From positions 4,800,001 through 4,864,000 of the forward strand of contig OZ240248.1 in the NCBI GenBank assembly GCA_965198235.1: 64,000 bases of DNA, in the 5' to 3' direction. The DNA comes from Candidatus Poribacteria bacterium. GTDB taxonomy: Bacteria > Poribacteria > WGA-4E > WGA-3G. Below, piece after piece: positions 2,244 through 40,171 of this stretch; positions within the stretch are counted from its first letter, which is position 1, and each line of letters opens with the position of its first letter. A program made the translations under genes and the position numbers. The notes beneath the pieces are model-generated. The model worked only from the letters and a program-made list of their open reading frames with translations, did not search any database and was not told the DNA's origin.

Positions 2244-2323
2244 GGAGCATCGGCTGTTTTGTTGTTTCGATCTCTCTGTTTCGTTAGGAATCTTTCACCA
2301 TTAGGCACGCTTCTCAGACACAT

Positions 2324-2782
2324 TTGCAAACTGTGCCTAAGAAGCGTGCATATCAAACTCGTGTGAGTCTTGTTCCATTTAGCAGATACGCGGGTGACAG
2401 TTCATCTGCCAACGTTTTTGAGATCGCTGGTGGGCTCGACAAACTCGCTGAGGCAATAGCCACACGCCAGCATTTTGAGATCGAGAGAGCCAATCTAACA
2501 GCAGAATCCGGCAGAGACAAGGTGCAGCATATCCTCGGATGCTCTAAAGTTCATGCCAACCGTGTTCTGAATAAATTGAGGGGTGGGAACCTCCGGCGTG
2601 TAACCTTTCGCGAACAGATCCTCTCTCTTCTTGGTGATGGTGAGGAAAAGGCGGCTGAAGTGGTTGCAGCGATTGATGGAAACCCAAAAGCAGTAAACCA
2701 TGAACTCGTAAGACTTGCCAATGCAGGTGAGATTGTAAAGGTCCGGTGGGGTGTGTATGCCCTTCCACCCTCTACATCATAA
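2324..2782 (+). pseudogene. Probable 3' fragment of a larger gene ending in a winged-HTH (AbiEi-antitoxin-N-like) domain
   Basis: TTG start lies inside a palindrome with no RBS; C-terminus ELVRLANAGEIVKVRWGVYAL resembles a wHTH. Confidence 0.4.
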
Positions 2783-6550: not shown

Positions 6551-7543
6551 ATGATTGACCGACGTGCATTTTTAAAGTCGATGGCAAGTTTGACAACAGG
6601 CATTCTCTTGTCATCTGCGTGTGCAGAGGGTGGTGAAGAAGGAGCTACGAGTGATCATTTGGGTACTCTCCTGCCGACCCGGAGGTTTGGACGCACGGGA
6701 GAAGCTGTGACGATGCTCGGTGTAGGCGGGTGGCATATTGGGGAGATGAGCGAAGCGGAAGCTCAGAAAACGATCGAGACCGCACTTGAGGGGGGTGTCC
6801 GTTTCTTTGATAGTGCTGAATCTTATCAAGCCGGTGGGAGCGAGAGCCGTCTCGGAAAACTGCTTGTTCCAAAATATCGCGATGATGTGTTTCTTATGAC
6901 GAAAACAACCGCACCAAACGCGGTGAAAGCATGGGAACACCTTGAAGGTTCACTGACACGCTTGAATACCGATCAACTTGACCTCTGGCAGATGCATTCT
7001 GTCCGGAATCCTGCAGATGTCGATGAGCGGATTGATAACGGTATTCTTGACGTTATGTTGGAAGCAAAGGCAACCGGCAAAACGCGCTATATCGGGTTCA
7101 CTGGACATTCAAATCCAGCCGCTCATGCCCGTGTACTGGAACGGACCGATATTTTTGACACGTGTCAATTAGCGATGAATCTCGTTGACATCAGTTACGA
7201 AAGTTTCATTGAGAGAGTGGTGCCGACGCTCGTTGAGCGAAACATTGGCGTGATTGGAATGAAAGCGTTAGCGAACGGTGGTTTCTTCGGTGGTTTGCAG
7301 CACGGCAAACACGGTCCGAATCCGAAAGTTGTCCCCAATCGTGTCAGTGTCTCCGAAGCGATTCGGTTCGTCTGGTCGTTGCCCGTAAGTACACTCGTTA
7401 CCGGTCCAGACGATGCAAAGCAGATGCAAGAGAAAATTGACATTGCCAAAACCTTTACAGGCATGGACGATGACGAACGACAGGCATTAATAGAGAAGGT
7501 CGAAGATATGGCGGGGACAACCGTTGAATTTTATAAAGCCTGA
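6551..7543 (+). CDS. Aldo/keto reductase with Tat signal peptide
   Basis: DRRAFLK twin-arginine motif; FDSAESY, MTKT, SLTRLNTDQLDLWQMH; GGAGGT RBS before ATG 6551. Confidence 0.9.
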   Translation: MIDRRAFLKSMASLTTGILLSSACAEGGEEGATSDHLGTLLPTRRFGRTGEAVTMLGVGGWHIGEMSEAEAQKTIETALEGGVRFFDSAESYQAGGSESRLGKLLVPKYRDDVFLMTKTTAPNAVKAWEHLEGSLTRLNTDQLDLWQMHSVRNPADVDERIDNGILDVMLEAKATGKTRYIGFTGHSNPAAHARVLERTDIFDTCQLAMNLVDISYESFIERVVPTLVERNIGVIGMKALANGGFFGGLQHGKHGPNPKVVPNRVSVSEAIRFVWSLPVSTLVTGPDDAKQMQEKIDIAKTFTGMDDDERQALIEKVEDMAGTTVEFYKA

Positions 7544-7580
7544 TGCTCACCTATGGGAGCGATGTTTCTAAAAACATGTC

Positions 7581-9242
7581 ATGCGGATTTTTGCTCTCTT
7601 GTGTGTCCTTATTTCTCTATGTATTCGTGCCGGAGCGGATGTTAAATTTACGGATGTCACTGATGTATCCGGCATCGAATTCCGACACTTCACTGGGGCA
7701 ACCGGTGAACGTTATATGCCTGAGACGATGGGGGCGGGTTGCGCTTTTTTCGACTACGATGCAGATGGTCATTTGGACATTCTGCTCGCGAATGGAACGA
7801 GTTTGATACCGGCAGGTCCAGCGGATACCCCGAAACTTTACCGAAACGCTGGGGATGGGCAGTTTGTTGACGTTACTGAGGCAGCAAGACTCGACGTGCC
7901 GATGTACGGTATGGGCATAGCCGCTGCCGATTACGATAACGATGCCGATCTCGATATCTACTTTACTAATGTAGGTGAAAATCGACTCTTCCGCAATAAC
8001 GGCGACAGGACTTTCACAAACGTCACCGAATTTGCAAAGGTAGGCGATTCCGGTTGGTCGACAAGCGCAGCCTTCTTCGATGCCGATAAGGACGGTTGGT
8101 TGGATCTGTTTGTTTGCAACTATGTTGAATGGACCCCTGAAACAGATGTTGCGTGTACAGTAAATCTGGCTGGTGAGAAACAATACCGGACCTATTGTAC
8201 CCCTACTGTCTATCCCGGACAATCTTGTCGTTTCTATCGCAATCAAGGCAGTGGCACATTCACGGATATGACATCACAGGCGGGGTTGTCCAATCCAATC
8301 GGGAAGTCGCTCGGCGTAACCCTTTTGGATTACAATCATGACGGATGGATCGACCTTGCGGTGGCGAACGATACCGAACCTAATTTTTTGTATCGCAATA
8401 ACGGTGATGGCACATTTACCGACGAAGCCGTGCTGATGGGTGTCGCTTTCAGTGAGACGGGGAAAGCGCGCGGAAGCATGGGGATTGATGCAGCGGATGT
8501 CTATAACAGTGGCGGCACTGCAATCGTTATCGGTAATTTTAGCAACGAGAAAACGGGATTTTTCTATACAGAACCGGGTGCTGCCTACTTCACCGATAGA
8601 GCGGATAAGGCAGGAATTGGTAAGCCAAGTTACCGTTTTTTGACGTTTGGGGCCCTGTTTTTCGATTGCGATTTGGATGGAGCACTTGACCTGTTTTGCG
8701 TTAATGGACATATTGAACCGGAGGTGCTGCGCTATCAGCAGCATACTCCTTACACACAATCCCCCTCGCTCTTCCGAAACCAGAGAAACGGAACATTTCG
8801 AGACATCACCAAAGTTGCTGGCCTCACTCGCCAAGGTGTTGGACGTGGATGTGCCTACGGTGATTACGATAATGATGGTGATGTGGACCTTCTTGTAAGT
8901 AATAACGGCGTTACCGAAGATTACGGTGGCGTGTGGCTCCTGCGTAACGATAGCGACCCTCCGTCTAACTATCTCCGAGTGAGGGTTATCGGGACCCGTA
9001 GTAATCGCGATGGAATCGGGGTGCGTGTTCGGTTAACTTTGGGGGATAGCGTTCAACAGCAAATCGTCCGTACCGGTGGCAGCTACTGTTCCCAAAGCGA
9101 AATGACATTGACCTTCGGATTGGGAAAAAGCGAAACGGGTGCGCAACTTGAAATCCTATGGCCCTCTGGTGAGATAGACCAGTACGCAGAACTTGAGGCG
9201 AATCAACTTATAGAGGTAGTCGAAGGAGGGTCCCAAAAATGA
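7581..9242 (+). CDS. CRTAC1/ASPIC-UnbV family FG-GAP repeat protein
   Basis: Signal peptide; repeated DYDNDGDxD and LxRNxGDGTF; C-terminal SNRDGIG...FGLG. Confidence 0.9.
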   Translation: MRIFALLCVLISLCIRAGADVKFTDVTDVSGIEFRHFTGATGERYMPETMGAGCAFFDYDADGHLDILLANGTSLIPAGPADTPKLYRNAGDGQFVDVTEAARLDVPMYGMGIAAADYDNDADLDIYFTNVGENRLFRNNGDRTFTNVTEFAKVGDSGWSTSAAFFDADKDGWLDLFVCNYVEWTPETDVACTVNLAGEKQYRTYCTPTVYPGQSCRFYRNQGSGTFTDMTSQAGLSNPIGKSLGVTLLDYNHDGWIDLAVANDTEPNFLYRNNGDGTFTDEAVLMGVAFSETGKARGSMGIDAADVYNSGGTAIVIGNFSNEKTGFFYTEPGAAYFTDRADKAGIGKPSYRFLTFGALFFDCDLDGALDLFCVNGHIEPEVLRYQQHTPYTQSPSLFRNQRNGTFRDITKVAGLTRQGVGRGCAYGDYDNDGDVDLLVSNNGVTEDYGGVWLLRNDSDPPSNYLRVRVIGTRSNRDGIGVRVRLTLGDSVQQQIVRTGGSYCSQSEMTLTFGLGKSETGAQLEILWPSGEIDQYAELEANQLIEVVEGGSQK

Positions 9243-10042
9243 AACTATGGATGTATGGATGCCTCTTTCTGGTAATCTTAGGGCTAATTATTGGATGTCA
9301 AGACAACGAAAGGATTTCGACTAAAAAAAAATCCGCATCCACGACATCCACAAAGCCCTCGGTTTCACCCTCGGCACAGGACTACAATAACAGCGGGATT
9401 GCTTACCAACGTGCAGGGAGACTGCAAGAGGCAGCGGCGGCTTATCGACAGGCTATCGAGATAAGACCGACGTTGATTGAGGCGCATCATAACTTAGGCA
9501 CGGTGTATGTGATGCAGGGGAAGCTTGTGGAGGCGATTGTTGCGTATAAGCGCGTTATTCAGTTACGCCCCGACATGGCAGATGCCTATGTTGATTTAGG
9601 TAGAGCCTATGGGTTCGCAGGGCAACTTGATGAAGCGATTGTTGAATACCAAAAGGCACTTACCCGCGACGCTACCCTCGTCTACGCTCACTATGGAATC
9701 GGTGTCGCTTACAGACATAAAGGCATGTTTCCCGAAGCCATCGCGGCACTTGAGAAGACGATAACCCGGCGACCTGACTTCGTCGAGGCACTCATGCAGC
9801 TGGGTTATATCTATCGAGAAACAGAACAGTTTACCGACGCTGTGGAAATCTTCACCACGGTTACGCGAATCCATCCAACAGACGCTACAGCGTACCATGA
9901 ACTCGGGGTCTGCTATACAAAAGCGGACGCGTATATAGAAGCTATTAAGGCTTTTGAAAGAGCCTTACAACTCAATCCAGATGCTGTTGAGACGCAAAAT
10001 CTCTTGCGGGTTGCCCAAGCGCGTGTGGCGCGTCAAAAGTAG
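9239..10042 (+). CDS. TPR-repeat lipoprotein
   Basis: LIIGC lipobox; about six TPR units (AHHNLG...AIxxYKRxIxLxP). Confidence 0.88.
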   Translation: MKLWMYGCLFLVILGLIIGCQDNERISTKKKSASTTSTKPSVSPSAQDYNNSGIAYQRAGRLQEAAAAYRQAIEIRPTLIEAHHNLGTVYVMQGKLVEAIVAYKRVIQLRPDMADAYVDLGRAYGFAGQLDEAIVEYQKALTRDATLVYAHYGIGVAYRHKGMFPEAIAALEKTITRRPDFVEALMQLGYIYRETEQFTDAVEIFTTVTRIHPTDATAYHELGVCYTKADAYIEAIKAFERALQLNPDAVETQNLLRVAQARVARQK

Positions 10043-10197
10043 TTCATAATTAAGTGTGTTAATTTACTGGCACAAGTTGTACCGTTATTGTCAGGGCGGA
10101 CGTGCCACAATTTCCTGCTTCCCTGCTTGAAAAAGAGGTTTTCAAGTAGAGAACAAAAGGGGTCTGTGGAATTCCTATGAATTCCAAAGGAGGAAAA

Positions 10198-11025
10198 ATG
10201 CGTCGAGTTATACTTTTTACGATATTGATAGCACTGTTTTCCGTGCTAACTTTTCTTGTGAACGCTGCGGATATTGAGGATGGACTTTGGATGTATCTAC
10301 CCTTGAACGAAGGGGCGGGACAACTGGTCGCTGACCACGGACCCAACGAATTCAAGACGGAACTCAGTAAAAGCGCACCGAAATGGGTTGATGCGAAGCA
10401 CGACGATATCGGAAAAGCCATGGAATTTGATGGCAAGGCGACCTTCGTCAAAATTGATATGGCGGGTCAGGGGAAAGACATAGATTCTCACTTTGACAAG
10501 AAGGACGGGATTACTATTTGTGCGTGGGTGAAGGTGTTAAAAGTCGGGACTGATGGCCACGGACAAACCCGTCAGCCCATCGTCATGAAAGGTGCCGGTG
10601 GGCAGTGGGAGTTTTCCCTCTATATCTATGACGACTTCGGTGCTGGTATGTCAGTTTGGACGTGTCCCGGTTCAGGGGTCTCAGAACCACACGGTGCAGG
10701 CACGGCGCCGCAAGGCAAGTGGATCCACCAATGCGGCACGTTTCAATTGGAGGAAGGTGTACGCGTTTACGTTGATGGCGAAAAAGATCCGGTCGCGCAA
10801 GCACCAGATAATGGCAACGGTCCCTGCGAGGCTGGAGATCGTCCTGTATTTATTGCCCACCGTGAGGATGGACAGTGGTTAAATGCAGTTATTGCTGAGG
10901 TCTATATGTGGGACCGCGTGATTGATGTTGATGAGATGAATCTCACTATGAACAACATTGGCGGATTGGCGGTTCAACCGGGAGGTAAACTGTCAACGAC
11001 CTGGGGCAACATAAAACGTCGCTGA
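10198..11025 (+). CDS. Secreted LamG-like jellyroll protein with C-terminal TTWG motif
   Basis: Signal peptide; AMEFDG, TICAWVK; ends AVQPGGKLSTTWGNIKRR. Confidence 0.85.
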   Translation: MRRVILFTILIALFSVLTFLVNAADIEDGLWMYLPLNEGAGQLVADHGPNEFKTELSKSAPKWVDAKHDDIGKAMEFDGKATFVKIDMAGQGKDIDSHFDKKDGITICAWVKVLKVGTDGHGQTRQPIVMKGAGGQWEFSLYIYDDFGAGMSVWTCPGSGVSEPHGAGTAPQGKWIHQCGTFQLEEGVRVYVDGEKDPVAQAPDNGNGPCEAGDRPVFIAHREDGQWLNAVIAEVYMWDRVIDVDEMNLTMNNIGGLAVQPGGKLSTTWGNIKRR

Positions 11026-11034
11026 CAGTTTTGA

Positions 11035-11059
11035 AAGGGCAGTTGAAAAACCGCCCCTT
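11035..11059. terminator. Hairpin between convergent genes (possible bidirectional terminator or REP)
   Basis: AAGGGC...GCCCCTT inverted repeat. Confidence 0.4.
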
Positions 11060-11073
11060 ATGTTCTTCTCTCT

Positions 11074-12576
11074 TCAGGGTTGCTCGTAGTATTCACCGAG
11101 ATGACTCGCAACCAGCGTCAAGTCTAAGATGTTTACTGTATTGTCTCCGTTAACATCAGCAGGCGTGGGTCCCTCCTGTCCGAAATTCAATCTCACCAAC
11201 ACCAGGTCTAAAATGTTAACGAAATTATCTTCGTTGACATCCCACGCGGGTGTCGATCGTTCAACTATCTCACTATCCGCGGTTTCCACAGGTGTGGGTT
11301 CAACTATCTCGCTATCTTCAGTTTCCACAGGTGTGGGTTCGACTGTCTCACCATCTTCAGTTTCCACAGGTGTGGGTTCAACTATCTCGCTATCTGCGGT
11401 TTCTGTAGGTGTGGGTTCAACTGTCTCACCATCTTCAGTTTCCACGGGTATGGGTTCAACTATCTCACCATCTTCGATCCTCACCGGCAGTGGTATCCCC
11501 TCACTACTCACAAGCATCACGTCATCAAGAGACAACATTGATGCCTTTGCGGCAACCACTTCAAATGCAATCGCCAGGAGAACCCCGTGTGTGCTCTCCG
11601 CTTTCATAGGGGCAGTCACGACGAAGGATACCCGATCTGACTCAACAGTTGCAGGAGCAGCAAAAACATCACCAGAGAGATAGGTCCCCTGCTGCCACAA
11701 AACGTAGCGAAGTGCCTCCGGGTCGAATTGGACTGATAACTGATAACCCCGGACGTTTTGCGCGTTGGCGACGACAACAGCGATACCAAATTGTTCTCCA
11801 ACATCAGGTGACTCGATTGACGCAGGCACGATCCTGACAATTGCCACAGTTTCGATGTCCAGCAACACAGCGAGTTCATTGATCCCATCAGGATCTTGGA
11901 GCAATACATGAAGATCCGGGTCGTTAATGAGGGTATTGACTTCAGGATCCTCCTTGAGAAGTATCAGAAATCTGTCATCAATCTCTGGGACAATTATTTC
12001 CAATAGATCTGGATTTTCGGCTATCAGTTTTATCATTGCGGGTCGTAAGAGTGCCTGTGTGTCCGGTTGCTTGAGTGTTGTGAGAACATCAGGGAGCAAT
12101 TCCTGAATGTCTTCGCGTTGAAAGAGGCGTTCATACCTTTCAAAGATCAGTGTTGCGAGAGAGGGTTTAGCGGCTTCAAGGAGATGTGTGAGTTCATCAA
12201 TCGCATCTGGCATTTGGAGTAAGGTTTGAACGTCCGGATCGCTGAATAAGACTCGGATGTCGGAGTCCTCTTGTTTTAGTAAGGTTATGAATTCATCACT
12301 GATCTCCGGGACGATTCTTTTCAGGAGGTCAGGGTTTTCCAGAACAGCCTCAATAAGAACAGGCGTTAGGAGCTTTTGATTCTCCGGTTTCTTGAGTTCG
12401 ACAAGGACCTCTGGTAGGACTGCTTGAACGTCTTCACTGAGCAGGATTGTTTGATGTTTCTGAAATACCTGCTCAGCGAGTGAGGGCATTTGGGCAGCGA
12501 TCTTCATTGCGAAGATTACACACATGCCTATGGTGAAAATAGATAAAAGGTGTTTTGAGAAAATACGAGACATCAT
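11074..12576 (-). CDS. Secreted protein: two ~105-aa helical repeats, cohesin domain, Glu/Thr/Pro linker and dockerin-like domain
   Basis: GYQLSVQFDPEAL cohesin-like segment; DVNEDNFVNILDL and DVNGDNTVNILDL EF-hand pair; start placed at MMSRIF. Confidence 0.8.
   Translation of the reverse strand: MMSRIFSKHLLSIFTIGMCVIFAMKIAAQMPSLAEQVFQKHQTILLSEDVQAVLPEVLVELKKPENQKLLTPVLIEAVLENPDLLKRIVPEISDEFITLLKQEDSDIRVLFSDPDVQTLLQMPDAIDELTHLLEAAKPSLATLIFERYERLFQREDIQELLPDVLTTLKQPDTQALLRPAMIKLIAENPDLLEIIVPEIDDRFLILLKEDPEVNTLINDPDLHVLLQDPDGINELAVLLDIETVAIVRIVPASIESPDVGEQFGIAVVVANAQNVRGYQLSVQFDPEALRYVLWQQGTYLSGDVFAAPATVESDRVSFVVTAPMKAESTHGVLLAIAFEVVAAKASMLSLDDVMLVSSEGIPLPVRIEDGEIVEPIPVETEDGETVEPTPTETADSEIVEPTPVETEDGETVEPTPVETEDSEIVEPTPVETADSEIVERSTPAWDVNEDNFVNILDLVLVRLNFGQEGPTPADVNGDNTVNILDLTLVASHLGEYYEQP
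11260..11475. repeat. 39-bp tandem repeat, 5.5 units (13-aa EPTPVETEDxExV linker)
   Basis: Units start at 11260, 11299, 11338, 11377, 11416 and 11455 (partial). Confidence 0.95.
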
Positions 12577-12826
12577 CTGAAGAAAATAGTAAACGTTACT
12601 TCGCTTTAACGCGATTTTAGAACAGAGCAATTTATAGTGCATTATAAAATAAATAGGTATTTCGAGAGAGCAGATCCGCCTCTCTATCGCTGGTGGGGTT
12701 TGTAACCCCATCGGTGTATCGTTTATAGATGTGTCGCAGCTTATGGGAAACCCGTAAACCGCGACAACATACTCACAAATATTAGTTCCGGGACGTGTCC
12801 GTGCGAAGGGACACGACCTATACCGG

Positions 12827-27415: not shown

Positions 27416-29275
27416 ATGCGTATCAAAAGACTTTCAGGTGCACTTGTGGTCTCAGTCGTGTGCCACATCGTTGTTGTTATTATTGCCGGTTTCCATTTGG
27501 TAGCACAAGACCGTCAGTTCAAAGAACTTCTTGGGACAGAATTTGTTTTATTTCCAGAAGTACCGAAACCGAAGGTACGTAAACCGGTTATCGAATCTGT
27601 GATTAAGTGGTCGGACATCCACGCTAATGCACCAAACGTACTACCAAACGCTAAGGACATTATGTTTCAAAGACCCCCTGGGTTAGGAATGATTCAGAAT
27701 GCCGGTGAGGCACGGGACCAACTCGAACCGGTTGTTGAAAACATGGTACTCGGTAATGTTAAAGTACCAGAACGACATCCTCCGAGAGGCGAGGCAGCTC
27801 GCGCCGTTGTCGTGACACGTAAACACCTCGGCAGTAGTGGAGTCCTGCCACCTCAGATGTTGAACCCGCCGAACGGTGCCGCCTATGATGATGTCTTCTT
27901 CAAAGGTTCTGGCACCAATCCGTTCATCGATACAGAAGATGATGCGTTTTCGACGTTTGGCATGGATGTAGATACCGCTTCATATACTGTCACGCGGCGT
28001 TACCTCCGAGATGGCATCCTCCCACCCTCAGAAGCGGTACGCGTTGAAGACTTTGTCAATGCCTTTGATTACAATTACACACCCCCATCGGACGAAGCAT
28101 TCGCCGTCCATCTTGAGGGTGCTCCTTCAAAGTTTGGTGAAGGCAAACGTCTCCAATTACTGCACATCGGCATTCAAGGTCGTATCATTCCAGACACTGA
28201 CCGAAAGAATGCAATACTCACTTTTGTGATTGATGTCTCCGGCTCAATGCGTATGGAAAATCGGTTGGGGTTGGTAAAACGAGCGTTAACCCTTTTGGTC
28301 GGGCAGCTCCGTCCTGAGGACAAGATAGGTATTGTCGTTTACGGTTCCAATGCTCGGGTGATCCTGCCACATACCAGTATTGTCAATCGGGAGCACATCT
28401 TAACCGCAATCCATGCCCTTGCGCCAGAAGGAGCAACGAATGCAGAGGCAGGGCTCCGAATGGGATATAAACTCGCCCTCCAGAATTCAAAGCCCGATTG
28501 CATCAACCGCGTGATTCTGTGTTCCGATGGTGTTGCGAATGTCGGACAAACCGGTTCCGATGGAATTCTCAAAGAGATTCGCACTTATGTTGAGGATGGG
28601 GTAACATTAACAACGGTCGGTTTCGGGATGGGCAATTACAACGATATCCTCATGGAGGAGCTCGCAAACAACGGCAACGGTAGTTATGCCTACGTTGATA
28701 CACTCAGCGAAGCGAAGCGGATCTTTGTAGAGAATCTGACTAGCACACTACAAGTCATTGCGAAAGATGCCAAAATTCAGGTCGAGTTTAACCCGGAAAC
28801 CGTTAGTCGGTTTCGGTTGCTGGGATATGAAAACCGAAGACTCGCGCATGAAGACTTCCGTAATGATGCTGTGGATGCGGGTGAAGTCGGTGCGGGGCAT
28901 AGTGTTACCGCACTTTATGAGATTAAACTTCACGAAAATGCTGTCGGAAAACTCGTCACGGTCTCTATCCGGCATGAAGATCCGGACACAGGACGTGTGA
29001 CGGAGGTGAATGAATCTATCTCCACAGATGCCTTGAAGGGTACATTTGAAGAGACAACATCGGCATTCCAACTGGCTGCTTCTGTTGCGGAGTTCGCCGA
29101 AATCCTGCGAGGCAGCTTCTGGGCACAGGAAGGAAGTTTAGAACTTGTGCGTGAAGCACTTGAAGGTGTCTTGCCGCACATCGATGCGAAAACTCGGGAA
29201 CATAGGGGGAGGAACGAAGAGTTGCTCGGTCTTGTACGTAAAGCACACCGCCTTAAAGAACAACAGGAAGGATAG
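27416..29275 (+). CDS. vWA-domain protein, YfbK family
   Basis: STFGMDVDTASY, MIDAS DVSGS, SDG, RLLGYENR, GHSVTALYE. Confidence 0.88.
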   Translation: MRIKRLSGALVVSVVCHIVVVIIAGFHLVAQDRQFKELLGTEFVLFPEVPKPKVRKPVIESVIKWSDIHANAPNVLPNAKDIMFQRPPGLGMIQNAGEARDQLEPVVENMVLGNVKVPERHPPRGEAARAVVVTRKHLGSSGVLPPQMLNPPNGAAYDDVFFKGSGTNPFIDTEDDAFSTFGMDVDTASYTVTRRYLRDGILPPSEAVRVEDFVNAFDYNYTPPSDEAFAVHLEGAPSKFGEGKRLQLLHIGIQGRIIPDTDRKNAILTFVIDVSGSMRMENRLGLVKRALTLLVGQLRPEDKIGIVVYGSNARVILPHTSIVNREHILTAIHALAPEGATNAEAGLRMGYKLALQNSKPDCINRVILCSDGVANVGQTGSDGILKEIRTYVEDGVTLTTVGFGMGNYNDILMEELANNGNGSYAYVDTLSEAKRIFVENLTSTLQVIAKDAKIQVEFNPETVSRFRLLGYENRRLAHEDFRNDAVDAGEVGAGHSVTALYEIKLHENAVGKLVTVSIRHEDPDTGRVTEVNESISTDALKGTFEETTSAFQLAASVAEFAEILRGSFWAQEGSLELVREALEGVLPHIDAKTREHRGRNEELLGLVRKAHRLKEQQEG

Positions 29276-29354: not shown

Positions 29355-30791
29355 TTATTGACGAAACGGCTTTTTCAGTTGCGTCTGCACAAGCCACTCT
29401 AAAATTTGCAGGCGTAACGCCGTTTCAACGTCCGCAACTTCAGGTCTACCGGCGAGGTTCTGTCCCTCATTCGGGTCGTTCTGCACATCAAATAGAAGAT
29501 AAACTTCACCCTTCGCGTTGAGTGCTATCTTCCACTCCTGATTTAAGAGCATAATCTCGCCCTCTATCTCCGAAATTGCAAATTCACGATGTGTCGCTTC
29601 AGGTTGCGTTAGCACTGGACACAACGATTTTCCGAATTGACGATGCTCCAATTCACCACCAGCCAATTCAACGAGCGTCGGACCGATGTCAATCCATTCC
29701 ACTGGACTCTCACAAATTGTTCCTGTGGGAGGGGTTTGTAACCCCGATGTGTCGCGCCTTCCTGTGGGAGGGGTTTGTAACCCCGATGTCTTAGGAATTC
29801 GCACGAGTAGCGGCACCCGAACGGCACCGTTGAGGAAGTTACTCTTATAGATAAGTCCATAGTCCCCGTTCATTTCACCGTGGTCGGAGGTGTGGACGAT
29901 GATTGTATTTTCAAGTTCGCCGCGTGCCTCGATTGTGTCAAGAATTTCGCCAATCTGTGCATCGATGAGCGTCACGTTGCCTGCATAATTCGCTCGGAGC
30001 CTCCCTATTTCGCCGGGTTCAAACGTCGGGTTCACCCTCTGCATCAGTCTGTCCAAATATCCTTTGGGACGTTCTCCGGCGGATGGACACCGGATTGCAG
30101 GTGGCATGTCTTCAGGATCGTACATGCTGGCGTAAGGTTCCGGTGTATCCCACGGTTCATGCGGTCCACCGAAACTAACCCAACAACACCAAGGTTCGTC
30201 CCGTTCATAGTTCTGGATGTATTGTTTTGCCTGTTGTCCGACGTAGACATCGGCGTAATCTTCGAGTCCTAACGTTGATGGACGAACGAGATGCGGTTTT
30301 GTGCTGAACCGTTCGCGATAATCGGCGCGATAAGCCTCCCATAATCCTTTTTCTTCCCACTCTGCCGTCATGTGAGACAAGACATTCGCACTTGCCCGCG
30401 GTCCACCGATTTCGTTCACATCGTCCAACCCATAGGCATTCATTAAACCCTCGCGTTCGCGGAGATCGCCGTTGTGCGGGTGGAGGTGCGTTTTACCAAA
30501 AAGACTTGTCCGATATCCAGCATCGCGCACTGCTTGCATCCAAGTCGGTGTTTCGGCAGGCATCTGATGGTTCATGTTGTTCCAGACATCGGTGTTGTGG
30601 GGATACAAACCTGTCGCCAGACTGAGTCGCGTCGGGATACAGACCGGCGATGTGGTGACACAGTTGGTGAATCGGAGACCTTCACTTGCAATCCGATCCA
30701 GATTTGGGGTCTGGACCCAATCGCCACTGCAACCCATTGCGTCCCAACGCTGTTGGTCTGTCATGAGAAAAAGGATGTTCGGAGTTGCCAT
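29355..30791 (-). CDS. Sulfatase (Cys-type) with in-frame REP insertion
   Basis: NILFLMTDQQR, CIPTR (CxPxR), GKTH, SDHGE. Confidence 0.92.
   Translation of the reverse strand: MATPNILFLMTDQQRWDAMGCSGDWVQTPNLDRIASEGLRFTNCVTTSPVCIPTRLSLATGLYPHNTDVWNNMNHQMPAETPTWMQAVRDAGYRTSLFGKTHLHPHNGDLREREGLMNAYGLDDVNEIGGPRASANVLSHMTAEWEEKGLWEAYRADYRERFSTKPHLVRPSTLGLEDYADVYVGQQAKQYIQNYERDEPWCCWVSFGGPHEPWDTPEPYASMYDPEDMPPAIRCPSAGERPKGYLDRLMQRVNPTFEPGEIGRLRANYAGNVTLIDAQIGEILDTIEARGELENTIIVHTSDHGEMNGDYGLIYKSNFLNGAVRVPLLVRIPKTSGLQTPPTGRRDTSGLQTPPTGTICESPVEWIDIGPTLVELAGGELEHRQFGKSLCPVLTQPEATHREFAISEIEGEIMLLNQEWKIALNAKGEVYLLFDVQNDPNEGQNLAGRPEVADVETALRLQILEWLVQTQLKKPFRQ
29721..29789. repeat. Tandem REP-like palindromes (TGTGGGAGGGGTTTGTAACCCCGA) inside the sulfatase
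   Basis: Two copies 39 bp apart; relatives at 12692-12714, 43348-43372 and 54276-54300. Confidence 0.9.
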
Positions 30792-31732: not shown

Positions 31733-32425
31733 TCAAAAAATTGTGCCGAGCCAGTCGTTTAGCAGAAAACCGACGCGGTGAATCAAGAGAGCAACACGCC
31801 CCATTACTGTGTTACCGAACGCTGCTCCGAATCCTATCATGAGAAAGGCAATACCAATTTTTGACAGCCATCTGACAGGTCCCTGGTGCTCCACAGAGAA
31901 AAAGAAATAGATGAGCGTACAAATCAGACCTATGACTATAAGGACTGCTCCGATAATATCCTCAAGGGGCAGCGCACCGGCATGCATTTGCACAAAGGGT
32001 GTAAGTGTGCCGTGTGTCTGCTCGAAAATAGATGCCCGTAACACATTGGGGATGGCAATTCCCGCGTTAAACCCAATTAGGATAGCAATAGGATACCGAA
32101 TTAGCCACGTATGCCGAGGGGACAACCGAGCAAAAAAGAGCAAACCGATTCCAATCGGAAATATTTTGAATAAACCGCTGAGTGCTTCACTTGTTTCTGG
32201 CGTGGCTTCACCTTTTATTTCGGTCCCAAGTGCAATCATCGCCTCAGACAAGGGGTTCCAAGCTAACGGTATGAATCCTTGATGAATAGTAATAACAATG
32301 CTATATCCAACCGATATTCCTACAAAGAGATGTTCTGCAAACCGATAAAACGGGTTATCTCGGTAGAGGAAACTGTAGATGCAAAGCGTCAGTAGTGCTG
32401 CAATCCAGATACCAAAAATTTCCAT
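31733..32425 (-). CDS. Uncharacterised polytopic membrane protein (gene 4 of the DUF6754-like operon)
   Basis: SFLYRDNPFYRFAEHLFVG and FGAAFGNTVMGR; about 6 hydrophobic segments; GGGGAG RBS overlaps the gene 3 stop. Confidence 0.8.
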   Translation of the reverse strand: MEIFGIWIAALLTLCIYSFLYRDNPFYRFAEHLFVGISVGYSIVITIHQGFIPLAWNPLSEAMIALGTEIKGEATPETSEALSGLFKIFPIGIGLLFFARLSPRHTWLIRYPIAILIGFNAGIAIPNVLRASIFEQTHGTLTPFVQMHAGALPLEDIIGAVLIVIGLICTLIYFFFSVEHQGPVRWLSKIGIAFLMIGFGAAFGNTVMGRVALLIHRVGFLLNDWLGTIF

Positions 32426-32429
32426 CAAT

Positions 32430-33245
32430 TTACTCCCCCCGCTGTCGATGAATGAAAAAAGCAATATTGCCCACAAAGACTAACCCGATAAGTAAAACAT
32501 GCACGAAAGACGCTGTATTTAAGCCTACAGTTCCATCCCCGGGAATATTTAACAGTTTCTCATATTCAGTGGCTCCCAAATAACCCGGCATCAAGCCGAC
32601 CAATTGCCCAGTTTGCAAGAACGGATACATCTGTGCGATAATGACACCGGTAACTCCAGCAGCAATCTTCAAATTGTATCTCGTGTTCGCATAGATAATC
32701 CAAGCCTCCGTCGAGCTTCCAGCAGCAAGGTCAAGTAGCAAGGCAATCTGATCGTAGTTCGTAATATTTTTCATCATCGGAATTTCGGTAATTGCCGTTC
32801 CCCCGTAATCGGTTTTGAAAACACTCGCGATATTAGTCCCCATCCCAAGAATAACCTGTAATGCTCCGGGTCGGTAACCCAAAAAAACATAATCATCACC
32901 ATAGGTTGCGTCGTTTTCCTCAGCGATCTTTCGCATGAGTCTATCTGCCAGGGTGGGCATATTAGCATAAAGGGTCATTCCGATGACGTTCACGTCTTTA
33001 TTAAAGCAGTGTCGTAGCACTGCTTTTGCCATTGGTTCTGGTTCGGCTAAAGAGGAAGGACCGTAATCGAAAGCGATCATAATGGTTGCCCCTGGAGGAA
33101 GTTCGTCAATATAGTCATAGAGTTTCTGTGTTGGTTCGGACACCCTCGTCGGTAGTCTGATTGGGATAAGAGTTGGGATGATAACGACTAAAGCAACTAA
33201 TATAAAAATCACCCGCCGGTCTATATTCATCAATTTATTGAACAT
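32430..33245 (-). CDS. Uncharacterised membrane protein: TM, alpha/beta domain, TM (gene 3)
   Basis: DRRVIF followed by a TM; soluble domain; C-terminal TM. Confidence 0.8.
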   Translation of the reverse strand: MFNKLMNIDRRVIFILVALVVIIPTLIPIRLPTRVSEPTQKLYDYIDELPPGATIMIAFDYGPSSLAEPEPMAKAVLRHCFNKDVNVIGMTLYANMPTLADRLMRKIAEENDATYGDDYVFLGYRPGALQVILGMGTNIASVFKTDYGGTAITEIPMMKNITNYDQIALLLDLAAGSSTEAWIIYANTRYNLKIAAGVTGVIIAQMYPFLQTGQLVGLMPGYLGATEYEKLLNIPGDGTVGLNTASFVHVLLIGLVFVGNIAFFIHRQRGE

Positions 33246-33248
33246 ATA

Positions 33249-33899
33249 TTAATCTCCTCCTCCTAAGTAAGAGCGTTCAATGCCCAAGATAATCCGAATG
33301 GATTGTGAAATAACACCCAAGCTCACCCCAAGGATAATACCGCGCCGTGATGCGAGGTTGGGGATGTCTAAAATCCATTGGCGTGCTTTTGAAGCACCGT
33401 CTTCCAAAGGAATCCACGACAGAACAGTATTCCAGATGAGGTCTCCTACGGGTACATTTCCCATCATCACAATCATTGCGGTAACGAGGAGCAAAGTTGC
33501 TTCAAACGTTCGGGCACGGAAGGCACGGTACGCCGCAGAAGCAATAAAAAAGGCAAGTAAGGAAAACATCGTTGCGTCCAATGGGACTTGCACGTTGTTG
33601 TATAACCACTCAAATATAGGGTTTTGCGGTCCAAACGGAACACCTATTAGAACCATAACGACTATGCCCACAAAAACAATGAAACTGTATTGCCAATGCT
33701 CTGTGCGTCGACGAACCCGCGCTATGTGCGTTTGGACAAGTGTGGCAACCGCCAAAACCAACGCGAAAGGTAATATTATGAGTCCCCAGTCAATAACCTC
33801 TTCGTAAAGTTTTTGTGAGTGTGGATGTGGACTAAATTGGGTAAAGATCATCACAACCCCGAAAATAAAACAGAGTGCTAAGGGTACTTGTCGTTTCAT
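33249..33899 (-). CDS. Uncharacterised polytopic membrane protein (gene 2)
   Basis: TMFSLLAFFIASAAYRAFRAR and SIRIILGIERSYLG; about 6 TMs; GGAGG RBS. Confidence 0.8.
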   Translation of the reverse strand: MKRQVPLALCFIFGVVMIFTQFSPHPHSQKLYEEVIDWGLIILPFALVLAVATLVQTHIARVRRRTEHWQYSFIVFVGIVVMVLIGVPFGPQNPIFEWLYNNVQVPLDATMFSLLAFFIASAAYRAFRARTFEATLLLVTAMIVMMGNVPVGDLIWNTVLSWIPLEDGASKARQWILDIPNLASRRGIILGVSLGVISQSIRIILGIERSYLGGGD

Positions 33900-33907
33900 G
33901 AAACCTC

Positions 33908-35053
33908 CTAACGGACTCTCTGTAAGAGCGATGTGATCCAGTTGACACCGGATAATTCCAGAATCACGCCAAGCACAACTGCCGCAAAAATAACGATCTT
34001 ACCCCAATCTTGCCCTTTAAGACTACCTAAGAACATAGGATCTTTGGATAAGTAAGCCGTCGCAGCGTAGAGTTCTTCACCAATTAAGGTATAATCACAC
34101 GCTGCGATAAAGAATGGGAGCTGATGTTCGGAATCTGTCCCTGCAATCTGTATTGCCCCGATAGAATTACCGGTTTCAGCCATGAGAAGCGATTCGGCAT
34201 AAAATTGACCTTGTAAAAATACCGCTGCCGGTTTTTCACGAACCATAATACCATCTACACCCGCGGCATAAGCAAACTGACTATCGGTAAGAAAGAAGAT
34301 ATTTTCTTCGTTATAGGCATCGGGACGTCCCTCATCAAGGTAGGACGTTTTCACCATCTCGCGCACGACATTAAGTACAATCGGGTCATTACAAGGCACC
34401 CGCAGTGGCGTTTCATAGTCTGCTGTCCGTCGTGCTATTTGTCCCAGAATTGTCATGCTGGCAATAGTAGCGACATTGTCTACGCCACCTAATCCTAGTA
34501 CGTAGAGGATGGAGCGCCCCATCTCTGTGGCTCTGCCGATGGCTTCATCGACAGCTTCAAGTCCAGGGATGCGCCGGACGAATACCTCTTTACCGCTTCT
34601 CGCATCATAGATATTCCAAAGAATCGCTGCGGAAAAAAGGAGCATGGCGATCAGTAGTGGAACTTTGCCGGTGTGAAACCATTCGCCTGTCCCTTTAACC
34701 GGGGCAGTTTCGTTAGAATTCACTGTTGCTTCTGTGTCGCTAACAGCACGCACCATGTAGGCGTAAGCATTGCCTTTTTCGATAGAGGCATCAACGTAGG
34801 ACGTTGTTCCAGCAGGTAGCAGCCCCCCAATTTCTTCGAGACCGCCGCCTGCAATCCGGCGCAGGATTTGATACCCGCTGATACCGCTATCCTCTGGTGC
34901 TGCATCCCACTTAATCGTGACACCGCTGCCGTCGTCGTTTGGCGTGTCCACTGCCGTGACGTTTGACGGTGGCGCAAGTCCTTGGCTGAATGCAGTGCTA
35001 ACGCTAACGCATAAAACCAAGCAGACGACTATCCAGTGAGTTGTTTTTATCAT
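33908..35053 (-). CDS. Fibronectin type III + DUF6754-like membrane protein (gene 1)
   Basis: Signal peptide; Fn3 (PSNVTA...W...Y...YxYMVRAV); TM; RRIPGLEAVDEAIGRATEMG...YTLIGEELYAA; C-terminal TM. Confidence 0.8.
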   Translation of the reverse strand: MIKTTHWIVVCLVLCVSVSTAFSQGLAPPSNVTAVDTPNDDGSGVTIKWDAAPEDSGISGYQILRRIAGGGLEEIGGLLPAGTTSYVDASIEKGNAYAYMVRAVSDTEATVNSNETAPVKGTGEWFHTGKVPLLIAMLLFSAAILWNIYDARSGKEVFVRRIPGLEAVDEAIGRATEMGRSILYVLGLGGVDNVATIASMTILGQIARRTADYETPLRVPCNDPIVLNVVREMVKTSYLDEGRPDAYNEENIFFLTDSQFAYAAGVDGIMVREKPAAVFLQGQFYAESLLMAETGNSIGAIQIAGTDSEHQLPFFIAACDYTLIGEELYAATAYLSKDPMFLGSLKGQDWGKIVIFAAVVLGVILELSGVNWITSLLQRVR

Positions 35054-35236
35054 AAATATTATATTCCTCGTTTGTAGCTGTCGGTTATTGATTAAATGCT
35101 TGTGGCGGTTGCCTGTTTCGTTGCTACCACAAACAACTAAAATTAGAGAAATCTAATGAATCCGAGATTCAGACAAGTAACTAACCGCTACGAGCGGCTC
35201 CTGTCTGACAGCCGACAGCCGATAACTGACAGCCAT

Positions 35237-37192: not shown

Positions 37193-37252
37193 TACAGCGT
37201 GATTGTAAGTCTATCACAAACGCAGGAGCAGCGTACGAAAAGGAGAACGCAG

Positions 37253-37849
37253 ATGGCACGACAGCTCAGAATGGCACGTCCCAATTTAGAAGATTTACCT
37301 GAACTGGAACTCCCGCCAGGCTACGGCATGCGAACCTATCGTGAGGGAGATGAGGTGCATTGGGCACATATCATTAGCGACTCGTTTGGGGGCAGGAAAC
37401 GCACCGCCCAAGATACGAAGAATGAGATCACTGGCAGAGATGTATTCATTCCTGATGGACTCTACTTCGCAACACATCAGGATATTCCTGTTGGAACTGC
37501 TTGTGCATGGCGGGAATCTGTAGATGAGAAGGATGTCGGATATGTGCACATGGTAGGCGTTGTCGCTGAACACACCGGACACAAACTTGGAACATGGGTC
37601 TCGCTCGCTGTTCTTATCTACTTCCGCGACAACGGATTCAAATGCTCGATGCTGGATACTGACGATTTCCGTGTTCCTGCTGTCAAGACCTATCTGAATT
37701 TAGGGTTTATACCTGTTTACGTTGAAGAGGGGCAGTCAGAACGATGGCAGAAGATTTTTGAGAAATTGGGACTCCCCTCTATGTCAGCGCAAATCGAGAA
37801 CGTTAGAGAAACGCTCCCTGAGGAACTGTGGACGAAAGTCTCATGTTAA
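37253..37849 (+). CDS. GNAT acetyltransferase, paralog 1
   Basis: VGVVAEHTGHKLG and AVKTYLNLGF; AGGAG RBS. Confidence 0.88.
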   Translation: MARQLRMARPNLEDLPELELPPGYGMRTYREGDEVHWAHIISDSFGGRKRTAQDTKNEITGRDVFIPDGLYFATHQDIPVGTACAWRESVDEKDVGYVHMVGVVAEHTGHKLGTWVSLAVLIYFRDNGFKCSMLDTDDFRVPAVKTYLNLGFIPVYVEEGQSERWQKIFEKLGLPSMSAQIENVRETLPEELWTKVSC

Positions 37850-37856
37850 AAATAGG

Positions 37857-38384
37857 GTGGAAGACCAACTCAGAATGATTCGGCACAGTTTGGAAAATCT
37901 ACCGACGCTCCAGTGTCCTGACGGGTATCACATCCGCACCTATCGACAAGGAGACGAGACACATTGGGCGCGAATAATGGACATAGCCTTCGTAGACAAG
38001 GGACGAACCGCCCAAGATACCTACGCTGACATTATTAGCCAACCCAATTTTGATCCAGATGGCTTCTGTTTCGTTATTCACAAAGATGTTCCTATCGGTA
38101 CAGCGTGTGCTTGGAAGGAATCTCTTCGTGGCAAACCGATTGGCTACATTGACATGCTCGCTGTGCTGCCGGAGCACACTGGGTATAGACTGGGAAAATG
38201 GCTAACAGTGTTTCTCCTGCACTATTTTAAAGCGCGACGTGTGGCATCCGTAATGTTAGACACAGACGATTTTCGACTCCCTGCAATCAAAAATTACCTC
38301 AACTTAGGGTTTGTTCCTGTTTATGCAGGTGAAAACCACCTGCTACGTTGGCGAAGTATTTTTGAAAAACTGGACATCTTCTAA
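37857..38384 (+). CDS. GNAT acetyltransferase, paralog 2
   Basis: Collinear with paralog 1 (QLRM...LDTDDFR...YLNLGF); GTG start at 37857. Confidence 0.85.
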   Translation: MEDQLRMIRHSLENLPTLQCPDGYHIRTYRQGDETHWARIMDIAFVDKGRTAQDTYADIISQPNFDPDGFCFVIHKDVPIGTACAWKESLRGKPIGYIDMLAVLPEHTGYRLGKWLTVFLLHYFKARRVASVMLDTDDFRLPAIKNYLNLGFVPVYAGENHLLRWRSIFEKLDIF

Positions 38385-38386
38385 AA

Positions 38387-40171
38387 ATGAGGGTACTTCT
38401 CGCGGTGAGAAACTATTTCCGTTTACCGAGTAGTTTTGTTATATCTGCGATTCTCATCAGCGGCTTCAGTTTCCGCCTTATCGGCATAAACATCGGCTTG
38501 CCTGATTCTCCTGACCCACGTGAAGTGCTAATCGCACGAGATGTGCTGAATCTAACCCACTTCACGGCACCACCTCAAATCTACAACTGGCCCGGAACAG
38601 CATGGTTTTACATTATTGCTGGGATAGGTAAATTACTGTCGCTTGCTGGTTTGCAGCTAACGGAGGCCCGCGTAATTTTATTGGCACGCAGCATCAACGT
38701 TCTATTGTCTACGGCGACACTTTGGTTCACCTATCGCATCGGAGTTCACTGTTACAGTAAACGTATAGGTCAGATTGCAGCAGGATTGCTCGCTGTTGCG
38801 ATGTTACATGCCACGAATGAATCGCGTTTTGCCCTTGTTGACATCCCCGCGACTTTCTGTGTAACGCTGTTTCTCTGGCTCGTGATGCGTGCGCGGTCTT
38901 CTTCAGTTGCGCCTACATTTCAAACTGCGGTATGGCTCGGTGTCATCGCCGGGGTTGGTTTCGCAGTCAAATTTACAACCGTTTTTGTAGGTTTCTCTCT
39001 GCTGGTCTTTATCAGAAGTGAAGGTTTTTATAAAAAATTAGCAACAATCATCGGTATTTCCGTATTAACCTTTACGTTCCTCTGCCCATATTGGCTCATT
39101 GATCTGGTTTCACCGGAGTGGAATCTTTTTTTTGAGGACTTCTGGTATGAAGCCACTCATTATCACCGCGGGCATTTCGGTCTCATCGCTGCGGCGGAAT
39201 CTGGGTTGTTACATCGATTTATCTATCTGTGGACGCTCCTGAAATGGGGCATGGGGTTGCCACTCGCACTCCTTGTCAGTTTGGGGGTCTTGTGTGCGCT
39301 CGTGTCGCTTAAAGCGGTCAGCAGTCACGCATGCTTCGCAGTGAGAACAGTCGGAAACCAGAGAACCTTGTGGCATTCAAGTGAAATGTGCATGCCACAC
39401 ACCGACAGCCGACAGCCGATGGTTTCCGATAGCCAATACTCAGAAGTACTCTTGCTGGCTTTCGTTATTCCCTACCTACTATTTATCGGGGTACATAAAG
39501 TTAAGTTTGCACGCCATCTACTGATACTCTATCCGGCACTCACTGTGCTCGCCGCAGCCGCGTTCACACGCTTTCCAAGCATTGTGGGAACTCTATTACA
39601 GTCGGTACGTCCACGCGAGACTGTGAATTTTCTGCATTCCACTGAAAGGCTTAACACATTTAGGAAAGGGTTTGGTATAATCTTCGGTGGTGTTGTCGTG
39701 CTTCACTCATTAGTTTATACCGTTTCCTTTGCCTCTATCCTGTTCTCGCAACCCACTAAGATTGCAGCATCCAATTGGATAGCCGCGCACATTCCTCCAG
39801 AGGAATCTATTGCTATTGCTCCAGAGGTGCTATTCGATTGGCTTCTTCCTGAATTAGACTTCGTAGGGACAAATGAAAAGGTAAAGTGGGTGCTTATCCT
39901 TGTGCCGAATCTTGACGTGTTCCGTAAATACCAAAAGGCTCCTCAACGTTACCAAGATGAAGATTGGTATCCTCTCAGTGGGATTGAATTCGAGGAGGTA
40001 CTTGCGTTTTACACGCGAGTCTTAGGGGAAGGGGGTCGGTATGAATTGCATAAAACATTCCGATGCCCACCGAAGTTCTTAGGTATCCGAATAATATCCG
40101 ATAGCGGTGCCCCGTTTCCGATGCGAGCCCTTGCACATCCAGAATTCCGCATCTATCGTCGGCTCTATTGA
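38387..40171 (+). CDS. GT-C fold membrane glycosyltransferase (ArnT/PMT-like)
   Basis: GLPDSPDPRE loop, many TMs, AVKF, FARHLL. Confidence 0.75.
   Translation: MRVLLAVRNYFRLPSSFVISAILISGFSFRLIGINIGLPDSPDPREVLIARDVLNLTHFTAPPQIYNWPGTAWFYIIAGIGKLLSLAGLQLTEARVILLARSINVLLSTATLWFTYRIGVHCYSKRIGQIAAGLLAVAMLHATNESRFALVDIPATFCVTLFLWLVMRARSSSVAPTFQTAVWLGVIAGVGFAVKFTTVFVGFSLLVFIRSEGFYKKLATIIGISVLTFTFLCPYWLIDLVSPEWNLFFEDFWYEATHYHRGHFGLIAAAESGLLHRFIYLWTLLKWGMGLPLALLVSLGVLCALVSLKAVSSHACFAVRTVGNQRTLWHSSEMCMPHTDSRQPMVSDSQYSEVLLLAFVIPYLLFIGVHKVKFARHLLILYPALTVLAAAAFTRFPSIVGTLLQSVRPRETVNFLHSTERLNTFRKGFGIIFGGVVVLHSLVYTVSFASILFSQPTKIAASNWIAAHIPPEESIAIAPEVLFDWLLPELDFVGTNEKVKWVLILVPNLDVFRKYQKAPQRYQDEDWYPLSGIEFEEVLAFYTRVLGEGGRYELHKTFRCPPKFLGIRIISDSGAPFPMRALAHPEFRIYRRLY

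Follow-up and report, generated by a model that had tools for sequence, protein, structure and literature searches.

A conserved four-gene membrane module around DUF6754 and its co-inheritance with a soluble MutL-like protein and U388

What do four tightly packed membrane genes do together when none of them carries a recognisable catalytic motif? This question is raised by positions 31733-35053 of a 64,000-nucleotide stretch of the genome of a Candidatus Poribacteria bacterium (hereafter the window; C1:4800001-4864000 of the source genome, contig OZ240248.1), where gene 1 (33908-35053; 381 amino acids, aa), gene 2 (33249-33899; 216 aa), gene 3 (32430-33245; 271 aa) and gene 4 (31733-32425; 230 aa) follow one another on the minus strand. 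The initial annotation, made from the sequence alone, had described four close membrane genes of a DUF6754-like complex with paralogous halves of inverted topology. The four open reading frames are indeed present, separated by gaps of 8, 3 and 4 bp, and comparison across genomes shows that the cluster is more than a chance neighbourhood. The four genes are obligate partners within a single conserved membrane module, which is probably a new kind of membrane machine.

With this question in mind, we compared the four proteins with known families. Gene 1 matches the Pfam family DUF6754 (PF20539) with an E-value of 2.6e-121 and 404 bits (cut-off 27), and the alignment runs from end to end, with residues 123-376 covering positions 3-256 of the 257 in the model; the DUF6754-like label of the initial annotation is thereby borne out. 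No Pfam or NCBIfam family is reached above threshold by genes 2, 3 and 4, and a one-by-one scan of 69, 77 and 68 cross-phylum homologues of genes 2, 3 and 4, respectively, returned scattered weak matches only. Furthermore, none of the ATPase, Fe-S or haem families in the Pfam/NCBIfam scan matches any of the four proteins, in agreement with the lack of a catalytic motif noted at the outset. With genes 2-4 lacking a family and PF20539 being a label devoid of function, the description of the cluster as functionally uncharacterised also holds.

The evidence for a module comes from the surroundings of DUF6754 in other genomes. Patterns from the DUF6754-domain alignment were scanned against species-representative genomes, which matched at least 596 stretches (593 confirmed), and synteny was counted in the best 80 loci of the at least 593 confirmed stretches, with genes 2-4 sought by single-sequence phmmer using the window proteins as queries. 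Genes 2, 3 and 4 are present in 77/80, 72/80 and 71/80 loci, always in the order 1-2-3-4 and on one strand, and a contig end truncates 8/80 loci. A full set occurs once or more in 70/80 loci from about 20 phyla, as labelled in the record titles, so that the neighbourhood survey proposed in the initial annotation finds the four genes syntenic elsewhere and in fixed order. The labels comprise Poribacteria, Zixiibacteriota, WOR-3, Ignavibacteria, Cloacimonadota, Fermentibacteria, Aegiribacteria, Armatimonadota, Latescibacterota, Eisenbacteria, Edwardsbacteria, Stahlbacteria, Coatesbacteria, Planctomycetota, a metagenome-assembled genome labelled Bacillota, and others. In the complete cassettes (n=82), median gaps amount to 12, 4 and 8 bp.

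A second or third cassette is present in 15/80 loci, mostly in tandem, and the identity between cassette copies within a locus is as low as that between phyla. In a tree of DUF6754 domains, tandem copies from three loci cluster by their position in the array (first, second or third), and therefore the tandem copies are old sub-families, not recent repeats. Three loci (L072, L088 and L095) have three tandem cassettes each, and the gene 1 of their third copy (267-303 aa) lacks an ectodomain. As to its spread, DUF6754 occurs in 172/176 Poribacteria genomes (132/133 of the better-quality ones), mostly as one copy; in 201/201 sampled genomes of the phylum of L072 and L095 (Zixibacteria-type), mostly with 4-6 matches each; and in 72/81 sampled genomes of the phylum of locus L062 (Armatimonadota by its title). 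It was found in 0/14 well-known model genomes searched.

Does the module stand alone? By clustering the neighbouring genes in the 80 loci, we obtained two families upstream of gene 1 in non-Poribacteria loci, a PF13941 protein of 600-670 aa, here called MutL-like, and a 375-aa protein, here called U388. The MutL-like protein has a full-length match to PF13941, the MutL domain of GlmL-type, hydantoinase-like ASKHA ATPases (E 9.7e-118 in L062, 4.9e-129 in the source genome), and remains under the equivalog cut-off of NCBIfam GlmL (NF040745; 209 vs 475 bits). U388 belongs to no Pfam family, shows 64% mean column identity with long invariant motifs, and its N-terminus yields matches to Biotin_lipoyl (12/16 members), RnfC_N (10/16, best E 1.9e-4) and NQRA_N (5/16), all under the curated cut-offs. 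Flavin attachment at an invariant U388 motif was considered and dropped, as the protein has no export signal and the motif does not fit the consensus. None of the PADLOC defence models matches genes 1-4, U388 or the MutL-like protein (0 families at E up to 0.01), and when profiles of gene 1, gene 3 and U388 were run against PDB chains, the output was confined to Fn3 matches or contained nothing meaningful. A full-text literature search on DUF6754, PF20539 and PF13941, with supplementary tables outside its reach, returned no paper.

Three kinds of observation connect this soluble pair with the membrane module. Among the 59 loci covered by the neighbour-gene counts (L060-L118), the MutL-like gene, U388 or both lie in the flanks of the module in 21, and in 15 the U388 gene is the immediate upstream neighbour of gene 1, in the same orientation; two small genes, U164 and U180, often precede the MutL-like and U388 genes. 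In four Fermentibacteria/Aegiribacteria-type loci (L078, L094, L099 and L117), the upstream string consists of a glycine-cleavage P-protein, U180, U164, the MutL-like gene and U388, and a TonB-dependent receptor and an ExbB/MotA gene directly follow gene 4 (at about 9200-12700 of these loci); an ExbB/MotA gene is also found five genes downstream of gene 4 in 4 WOR-3-type loci. A profile search over 1.84 billion representatives collected 3520 relatives of U388 (E of at most 0.001), and two of these are natural fusions, P0260 (995 aa) and P0334 (1003 aa), with PF13941 ahead of the U388 part. Finally, DUF6754, U388 and the MutL-like protein occur in 72, 71 and 73, respectively, of the 81 genomes from the phylum of L062, and all three are missing together from 8 of them. 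In the source genome, the MutL-like gene (C1:4009734-4011164) and U388 (C1:4755463-4756593) are each present as a single copy. In each of five genomes from different phyla U388 gives one match, and two of the five have 5 DUF6754 matches. Altogether, neighbourhood, fusion and co-occurrence show that the module belongs with the soluble MutL-like/U388 pair. What is new here is the co-inheritance and partial co-location of the module with the MutL-like ATPase and U388, together with the naturally fused pair.

We then asked how the four proteins are built. Gene 1 consists of a signal-peptide-like N-terminus, an Fn3 ectodomain (34679-34975, minus strand; residues 27-125), a transmembrane (TM) segment, the DUF6754 alpha/beta domain and a C-terminal TM segment. 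AlphaFold models of genes 1 and 3, built on cross-phylum alignments, are confident, with predicted local distance difference test scores of 92.4 and 94.6. By comparison of structures, the Fn3 domain, which is under the Pfam cut-off, is clear by its fold, and the matches listed for the gene 1 model among solved structures, by Foldseek and by VIA alike, are all Fn3. The soluble part of DUF6754 (34034-34597, minus strand; residues 153-340) is modelled as a helix followed by six beta-alpha units. Gene 3 carries an alpha/beta domain (32526-33155, minus strand; residues 31-240) between two TM segments, for which solved structures gave tied, generic Rossmann-like matches, none standing out. Hydropathy assigns six helices to gene 2, and five above threshold plus one weaker to gene 4, so that both are rightly regarded as similarly sized proteins of about six TM helices.

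Conservation is unevenly distributed over these parts. The soluble part of DUF6754 is the most conserved part of the module, with a median identity of 63% to the non-Poribacteria homologues, followed by genes 2 and 4 (about 44%), the gene 3 domain (39%) and the ectodomain (29%). Across 79 cross-phylum sequences, DUF6754 retains 36 invariant columns, many of them charged, plus a nearly invariant cysteine; no invariant cysteine is seen in the family alignments of genes 2, 3 or 4. In genes 2 and 4, the most conserved stretches lie in the predicted cytoplasmic loops and the adjoining helices.

The orientation of the four proteins was judged from charge bias, with lysine and arginine residues counted beside the membrane over 68-79 homologues per family. 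In gene 1, the mean count is 1.71 on the ectodomain side vs 5.22 on the DUF6754 side. Gene 3 has 2.48 such residues in its 11-residue N-terminal tail and 3.81 in its 8-residue C-terminal tail, and 3.43 in the 30 membrane-flanking residues of its domain. The counts in gene 2 alternate (1.88, 0.70, 4.65, 0.88, 3.04), which predicts a cytoplasmic N-terminus, with the last two loops ambiguous; those in gene 4 (0.03, 1.94, 1.26, 1.93, 1.12, 2.76) predict an N-terminus outside and precede a basic, amphipathic C-terminus. The polytopic core is thus predicted to contain two proteins of opposite orientation. Natural insertions add to this picture: in a Planctomycetota-labelled locus (L096), the gene 2 homologue (1255-2598, plus strand) holds a gene-3-like domain in its loop 3, which is poor in lysine and arginine (independent E-value 6e-43), and is followed by a normal gene 3, and in another locus (L074) loop 3 of the gene 2 homologue (6794-8572, plus strand) holds FG-GAP repeats. 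Charge bias and insertions together make it most likely that the DUF6754 domain is cytoplasmic and the gene 3 domain periplasmic, on opposite faces of the membrane, as the initial annotation had placed them.

The part of gene 1 that is predicted to be periplasmic is exchangeable. Some Poribacteria and the third tandem copies have no ectodomain; elsewhere it comprises one to about five Fn3 domains, or, in proteins labelled Eremiobacterota, Armatimonadota and Bacillota, a PQQ/BamB-like beta-propeller. DUF6754 is always the last domain of the gene 1 homologues. At the N-terminus of gene 3 (33212-33245, minus strand), two nearly invariant arginines stand just before the first TM segment in the 77 homologues, a pair that may reflect simple positive-inside bias or may serve as a Tat-like signal for exporting the periplasmic domain in folded form.

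We thus propose, tentatively and at somewhat less than even odds, that the module forms the membrane portion of a translocator or mechanotransducer of a new kind, coupled to an ATPase. Gene 1 would expose a variable ectodomain, here one Fn3, to the periplasm and its highly conserved DUF6754 domain to the cytoplasm, gene 3 would present a Rossmann-like domain on the periplasmic side, and the polytopic core would consist of genes 2 and 4 in opposite orientations. The MutL-like/U388 pair would dock on the invariant cytoplasmic face, formed jointly by DUF6754 and by conserved cytoplasmic loops in genes 2 and 4, where it would hydrolyse ATP and drive conformational work across the membrane. The output may be the translocation of a substrate that the periplasmic domains have bound, or a mechanical action on a periplasmic or outer-membrane partner, and one ATPase pair would serve one to six paralogous membrane cassettes. 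The binding of the pair to the module, the hydrolysis of ATP and the use of its energy across the membrane are steps that we infer. The conservation gradient would fit a constant cytoplasmic docking face and a variable periplasmic one. The strong conservation of genes 2 and 4 at their predicted cytoplasmic loops, the copy numbers and the TonB/ExbB context fit the ATPase-coupled reading as well. A more far-reaching version, which we regard as doubtful, would make this a new class of membrane machine in which a GlmL-type ASKHA ATPase, in place of an ABC, P-type or rotary one, powers one to six cassettes and exchangeable periplasmic modules (Fn3, beta-propeller, FG-GAP or Rossmann-like) choose the substrate or target. 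Such a machine would be core to Poribacteria, to Zixibacteria-type and Armatimonadota-type bacteria and to many candidate phyla, and lacking in the model organisms searched.

A number of observations weigh against this proposal. In 2/80 loci (L087 and L089), gene 1 is followed by 1.6-2.9 kb in which genes 2-4 are not found, even with hidden Markov models (HMMs) of the families. Within the 81 genomes used for co-occurrence, one (G381) has the soluble pair without DUF6754 and two (G421 and G452) have DUF6754 without a U388 match; moreover, these genomes are related, so that the counts overstate their independence. In the source genome, the MutL-like gene lies about 0.82 Mb and U388 about 77 kb from the module. 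The link between pair and module consists of adjacency, a fusion confined to the soluble proteins, and co-occurrence, from which we infer physical contact, and the ATPase role of the MutL-like protein is presumed from its fold family. GlmL is known only in connection with B12-dependent mutases, as one of their accessory genes. No hint of a substrate emerged, and the cross-phylum identity of 63% is unusual for a transporter subunit and would equally suit a catalytic or core-machinery role.

How do other explanations compare? The initial annotation had favoured a pseudo-two-fold heterotetramer of inverted topology with paralogous halves. That such a complex arose by duplication and acts as an ion-coupled secondary transporter, a channel or a relay without any ATPase we now consider quite unlikely. 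Both soluble domains indeed share the element order TM-alpha-(beta-alpha)x6-TM in the two AlphaFold models, and the seven motif pairs that had been aligned by eye all exist, each of them on an equivalent element (beta1-beta6 and alpha5). The predicted placement of the domains on opposite faces, the similar sizes of genes 2 and 4 with their N-in and N-out predictions, and the lack of an encoded ATPase in the operon also speak for it. However, at the level of sequence, the likeness of the two domains does not extend beyond co-linear motifs on equivalent elements. BLASTP of gene 1 against gene 3 gives a best E of 2.4, hhalign of the family alignments a probability of 2.3% with the match in the wrong region, and a local HMM-HMM comparison of the domains alone scores 16.7, against 17.7 +/- 2.4 (max 25.3) in 30 block-shuffled controls. 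For gene 2 vs gene 4, the BLASTP E-value is 1.6 and the hhalign probability 1.1%. Similarity at the level of chance in both comparisons does not support the claim of paralogous halves. Internal repeats were found in none of the four families by hhalign self-comparison. The 30 nearest Atlas clusters of the gene 3 homologue P0235 are unnamed and have no Pfam family, and therefore none carries DUF6754; an Atlas search with residues 150-345 of the gene 1 homologue P0014, PF20539 being left out, produced no usable match. A six-stranded Rossmann-like layout is very common, so that an equal element order counts for little, and the motif pairs are hydrophobic strands at regular spacing, as any two beta-alpha-beta domains offer. 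An ancient duplication of the halves is conceivable, though less likely than not. Prediction of one complex, with alignments for all chains (gene 1 residues 120-381, gene 2, gene 4, and gene 3 as the scored partner), gave 0.80, 0.82 and 0.80; controls scored 0.00 and 0.00 with the partner replaced and 0.76 with chain 1 replaced. This outcome counts neither for nor against binding. As for a purely secondary carrier, the operon indeed encodes no ATPase, but an ASKHA ATPase pair that is co-inherited and often adjacent weakens this idea.

The same features can be arranged differently. Swappable ectodomains on a constant membrane and cytoplasmic core, several paralogous cassettes in some genomes and a cytoplasmic domain that is the most conserved part would suit a trans-membrane sensor or relay, in which variable periplasmic modules sense a ligand or the state of the envelope and DUF6754 signals to cytoplasmic partners. 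Yet no known signalling output domain is found in the four proteins, many homologues lack the ectodomain (such as the gene 1 of 292-298 aa in L053-L056), and four stoichiometric subunits, two of them with six helices, exceed what sensors are known to need, which leaves this explanation with a small chance of being correct. Similarly improbable in our judgement is that DUF6754 is itself catalytic, in an enzyme bound to the membrane or a machine for envelope biogenesis, and acts for example on a lipid-linked or envelope precursor. GlmL-type proteins are thought to be maturation or reactivation factors, and the ATPase pair would have that role here. The 36 invariant DUF6754 columns with their many charged residues and nearly invariant cysteine point in this direction, as do the near-universal, mostly single-copy occurrence of DUF6754 in Poribacteria and the strong conservation of U388 as well (64% mean column identity), but neither domain matches an enzyme family or the sequence of a solved structure, and 4-6 copies per genome in one phylum would be odd for housekeeping biosynthesis. 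That the four genes are mere neighbours doing no joint work, as the 2/80 loci with gene 1 but without genes 2-4 could suggest, is hardly conceivable, given the fixed order and strand in 82 cassettes from many phyla with median gaps of 4-12 bp, the duplication of whole cassettes as units, and the insertion of a gene-3-like domain into gene 2 in one lineage.

The anatomy of the operon and its surroundings in the window was also inspected. As noted initially for the ribosome-binding sites, a purine-rich run of Shine-Dalgarno type lies at each gene junction and overlaps or directly adjoins the stop codon there. The start of gene 4 was set at ATG 32425, while the mechanical list of open reading frames starts at an upstream TTG, because a G-rich Shine-Dalgarno-like run precedes this ATG and the N-termini of homologues agree with it. 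Upstream of the module lie aroK and aroB, and downstream a xylose-isomerase-like TIM-barrel gene and then a sulfatase, which correspond to the co-oriented sugar epimerase and sulfatase of the initial annotation. The spacer between aroB and gene 1 (35054-35236, minus strand; 183 bp) contains a terminator-like hairpin at 35183-35199 and likely also the module's own promoter; a scan for sigma-70-type consensus found 4 sites vs 6.1 in shuffles, none of them in the spacer 5' of gene 1. The stretch of the window is present in sponge metagenome and metatranscriptome runs, and the locus itself is covered by contigs from 4 sponge metatranscriptome runs, all of one study. In one of these (X1), every one of the three gene junctions is spanned by a single contig, which is compatible with expression as one unit, bearing in mind that RNA libraries can contain DNA; in the other three (X2-X4), several bins of the locus are without coverage, although absence, like strand and the ends of transcripts, is not something contigs can reveal.

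Some further features were observed in this part of the window. The sulfatase open reading frame (29355-30791, minus strand) contains, around residues 330-355, a short stretch of about ten residues that is directly repeated in frame. Two adjacent, overlapping and clearly similar open reading frames of 216 and 220 aa (37199-37849 and 37722-38384, plus strand) look like a tandem duplicate. The region is flanked by an open reading frame of 619 aa with an N-terminal hydrophobic segment (27416-29275, plus strand) and by one of 594 aa that is strongly hydrophobic and polytopic-looking (38387-40171, plus strand).

Why does this matter? The proposed system comprises six protein families, of which only two have so much as a Pfam label, its cytoplasmic parts are 55-65% identical across phyla, and it is near-universal in several large, mostly uncultured phyla. 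If the link to the ATPase is true, it would represent a new coupling of ATP to work across the bacterial inner membrane, and it would provide a function for thousands of 'hypothetical' genes, up to about 20 per genome in one phylum, as well as for a core gene set of the sponge-symbiont Poribacteria. If it is false, there is still a conserved complex of four subunits, with an alpha/beta domain on either side of the membrane, as a clear target for structural biology.

It remains to place the system among known ones. The Pfam entry for DUF6754 is a label for gene 1 alone, with no function, structure or paper, and is silent on the three partner families and on the ATPase pair. In its architecture, the system resembles Rnf/Nqr, with two six-helix subunits of about 200 aa in opposite predicted orientations, one TM-anchored subunit with a periplasmic domain, one TM-anchored subunit with a cytoplasmic alpha/beta domain, and possibly a peripheral cytoplasmic protein with a putative N-terminal barrel-sandwich-hybrid domain, the U388 matches to RnfC_N and NQRA_N being sub-threshold. 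However, none of the homologues scanned (69 for gene 2, 68 for gene 4) reaches an Rnf-Nqr family with an E-value of 0.01 or less, the invariant columns of the module contain neither a conserved cysteine cluster nor a flavin-attachment motif, and an RnfD/NqrB-like subunit is missing. Furthermore, the partner of the module is an ASKHA ATPase, not an NADH or ferredoxin module. The testable features that define Rnf/Nqr are hence absent from the module.

ABC systems offer another comparison, as MsiK-type importers share one ATPase and the type VII ABC mechanotransmitters MacB, FtsEX and LolCDE couple an ATPase to mechanical work. The proposed logic is alike, with a soluble ATPase on the cytoplasmic face, a polytopic core and working periplasmic domains, and 1 U388 vs 5 DUF6754 matches in two genomes recall a shared ATPase. 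In contrast to these systems, the module has no ABC, Walker or signature-motif domain, its candidate ATPase belongs to PF13941 of the actin/Hsp70 (ASKHA) fold, and no permease family is reached above threshold, with weak TMD0_ABC matches in 6/69 gene 2 homologues (best E 1.2e-4). With GlmL/MutL of glutamate mutase, the partner ATPase shares the full-length PF13941 match, but it differs by about 150 extra C-terminal residues, by its 209 bits against the cut-off of 475, and by being fused or adjacent to U388 and adjacent to membrane cassettes, not to mutase genes. PilM-PilN-PilO, FtsA and MreB-MreC-MreD likewise tie an actin-fold ATPase genetically to small bitopic and polytopic membrane proteins with periplasmic domains, whereas no sequence relation to them was seen and no component of the present system has a Pfam match to those families. 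Beyond the DUF6754 label and the GlmL family name of the partner, no characterised relative was found. In our judgement, the system falls outside the known kinds, and what it does may yet prove to be a well-known activity carried out by an unusual scaffold.

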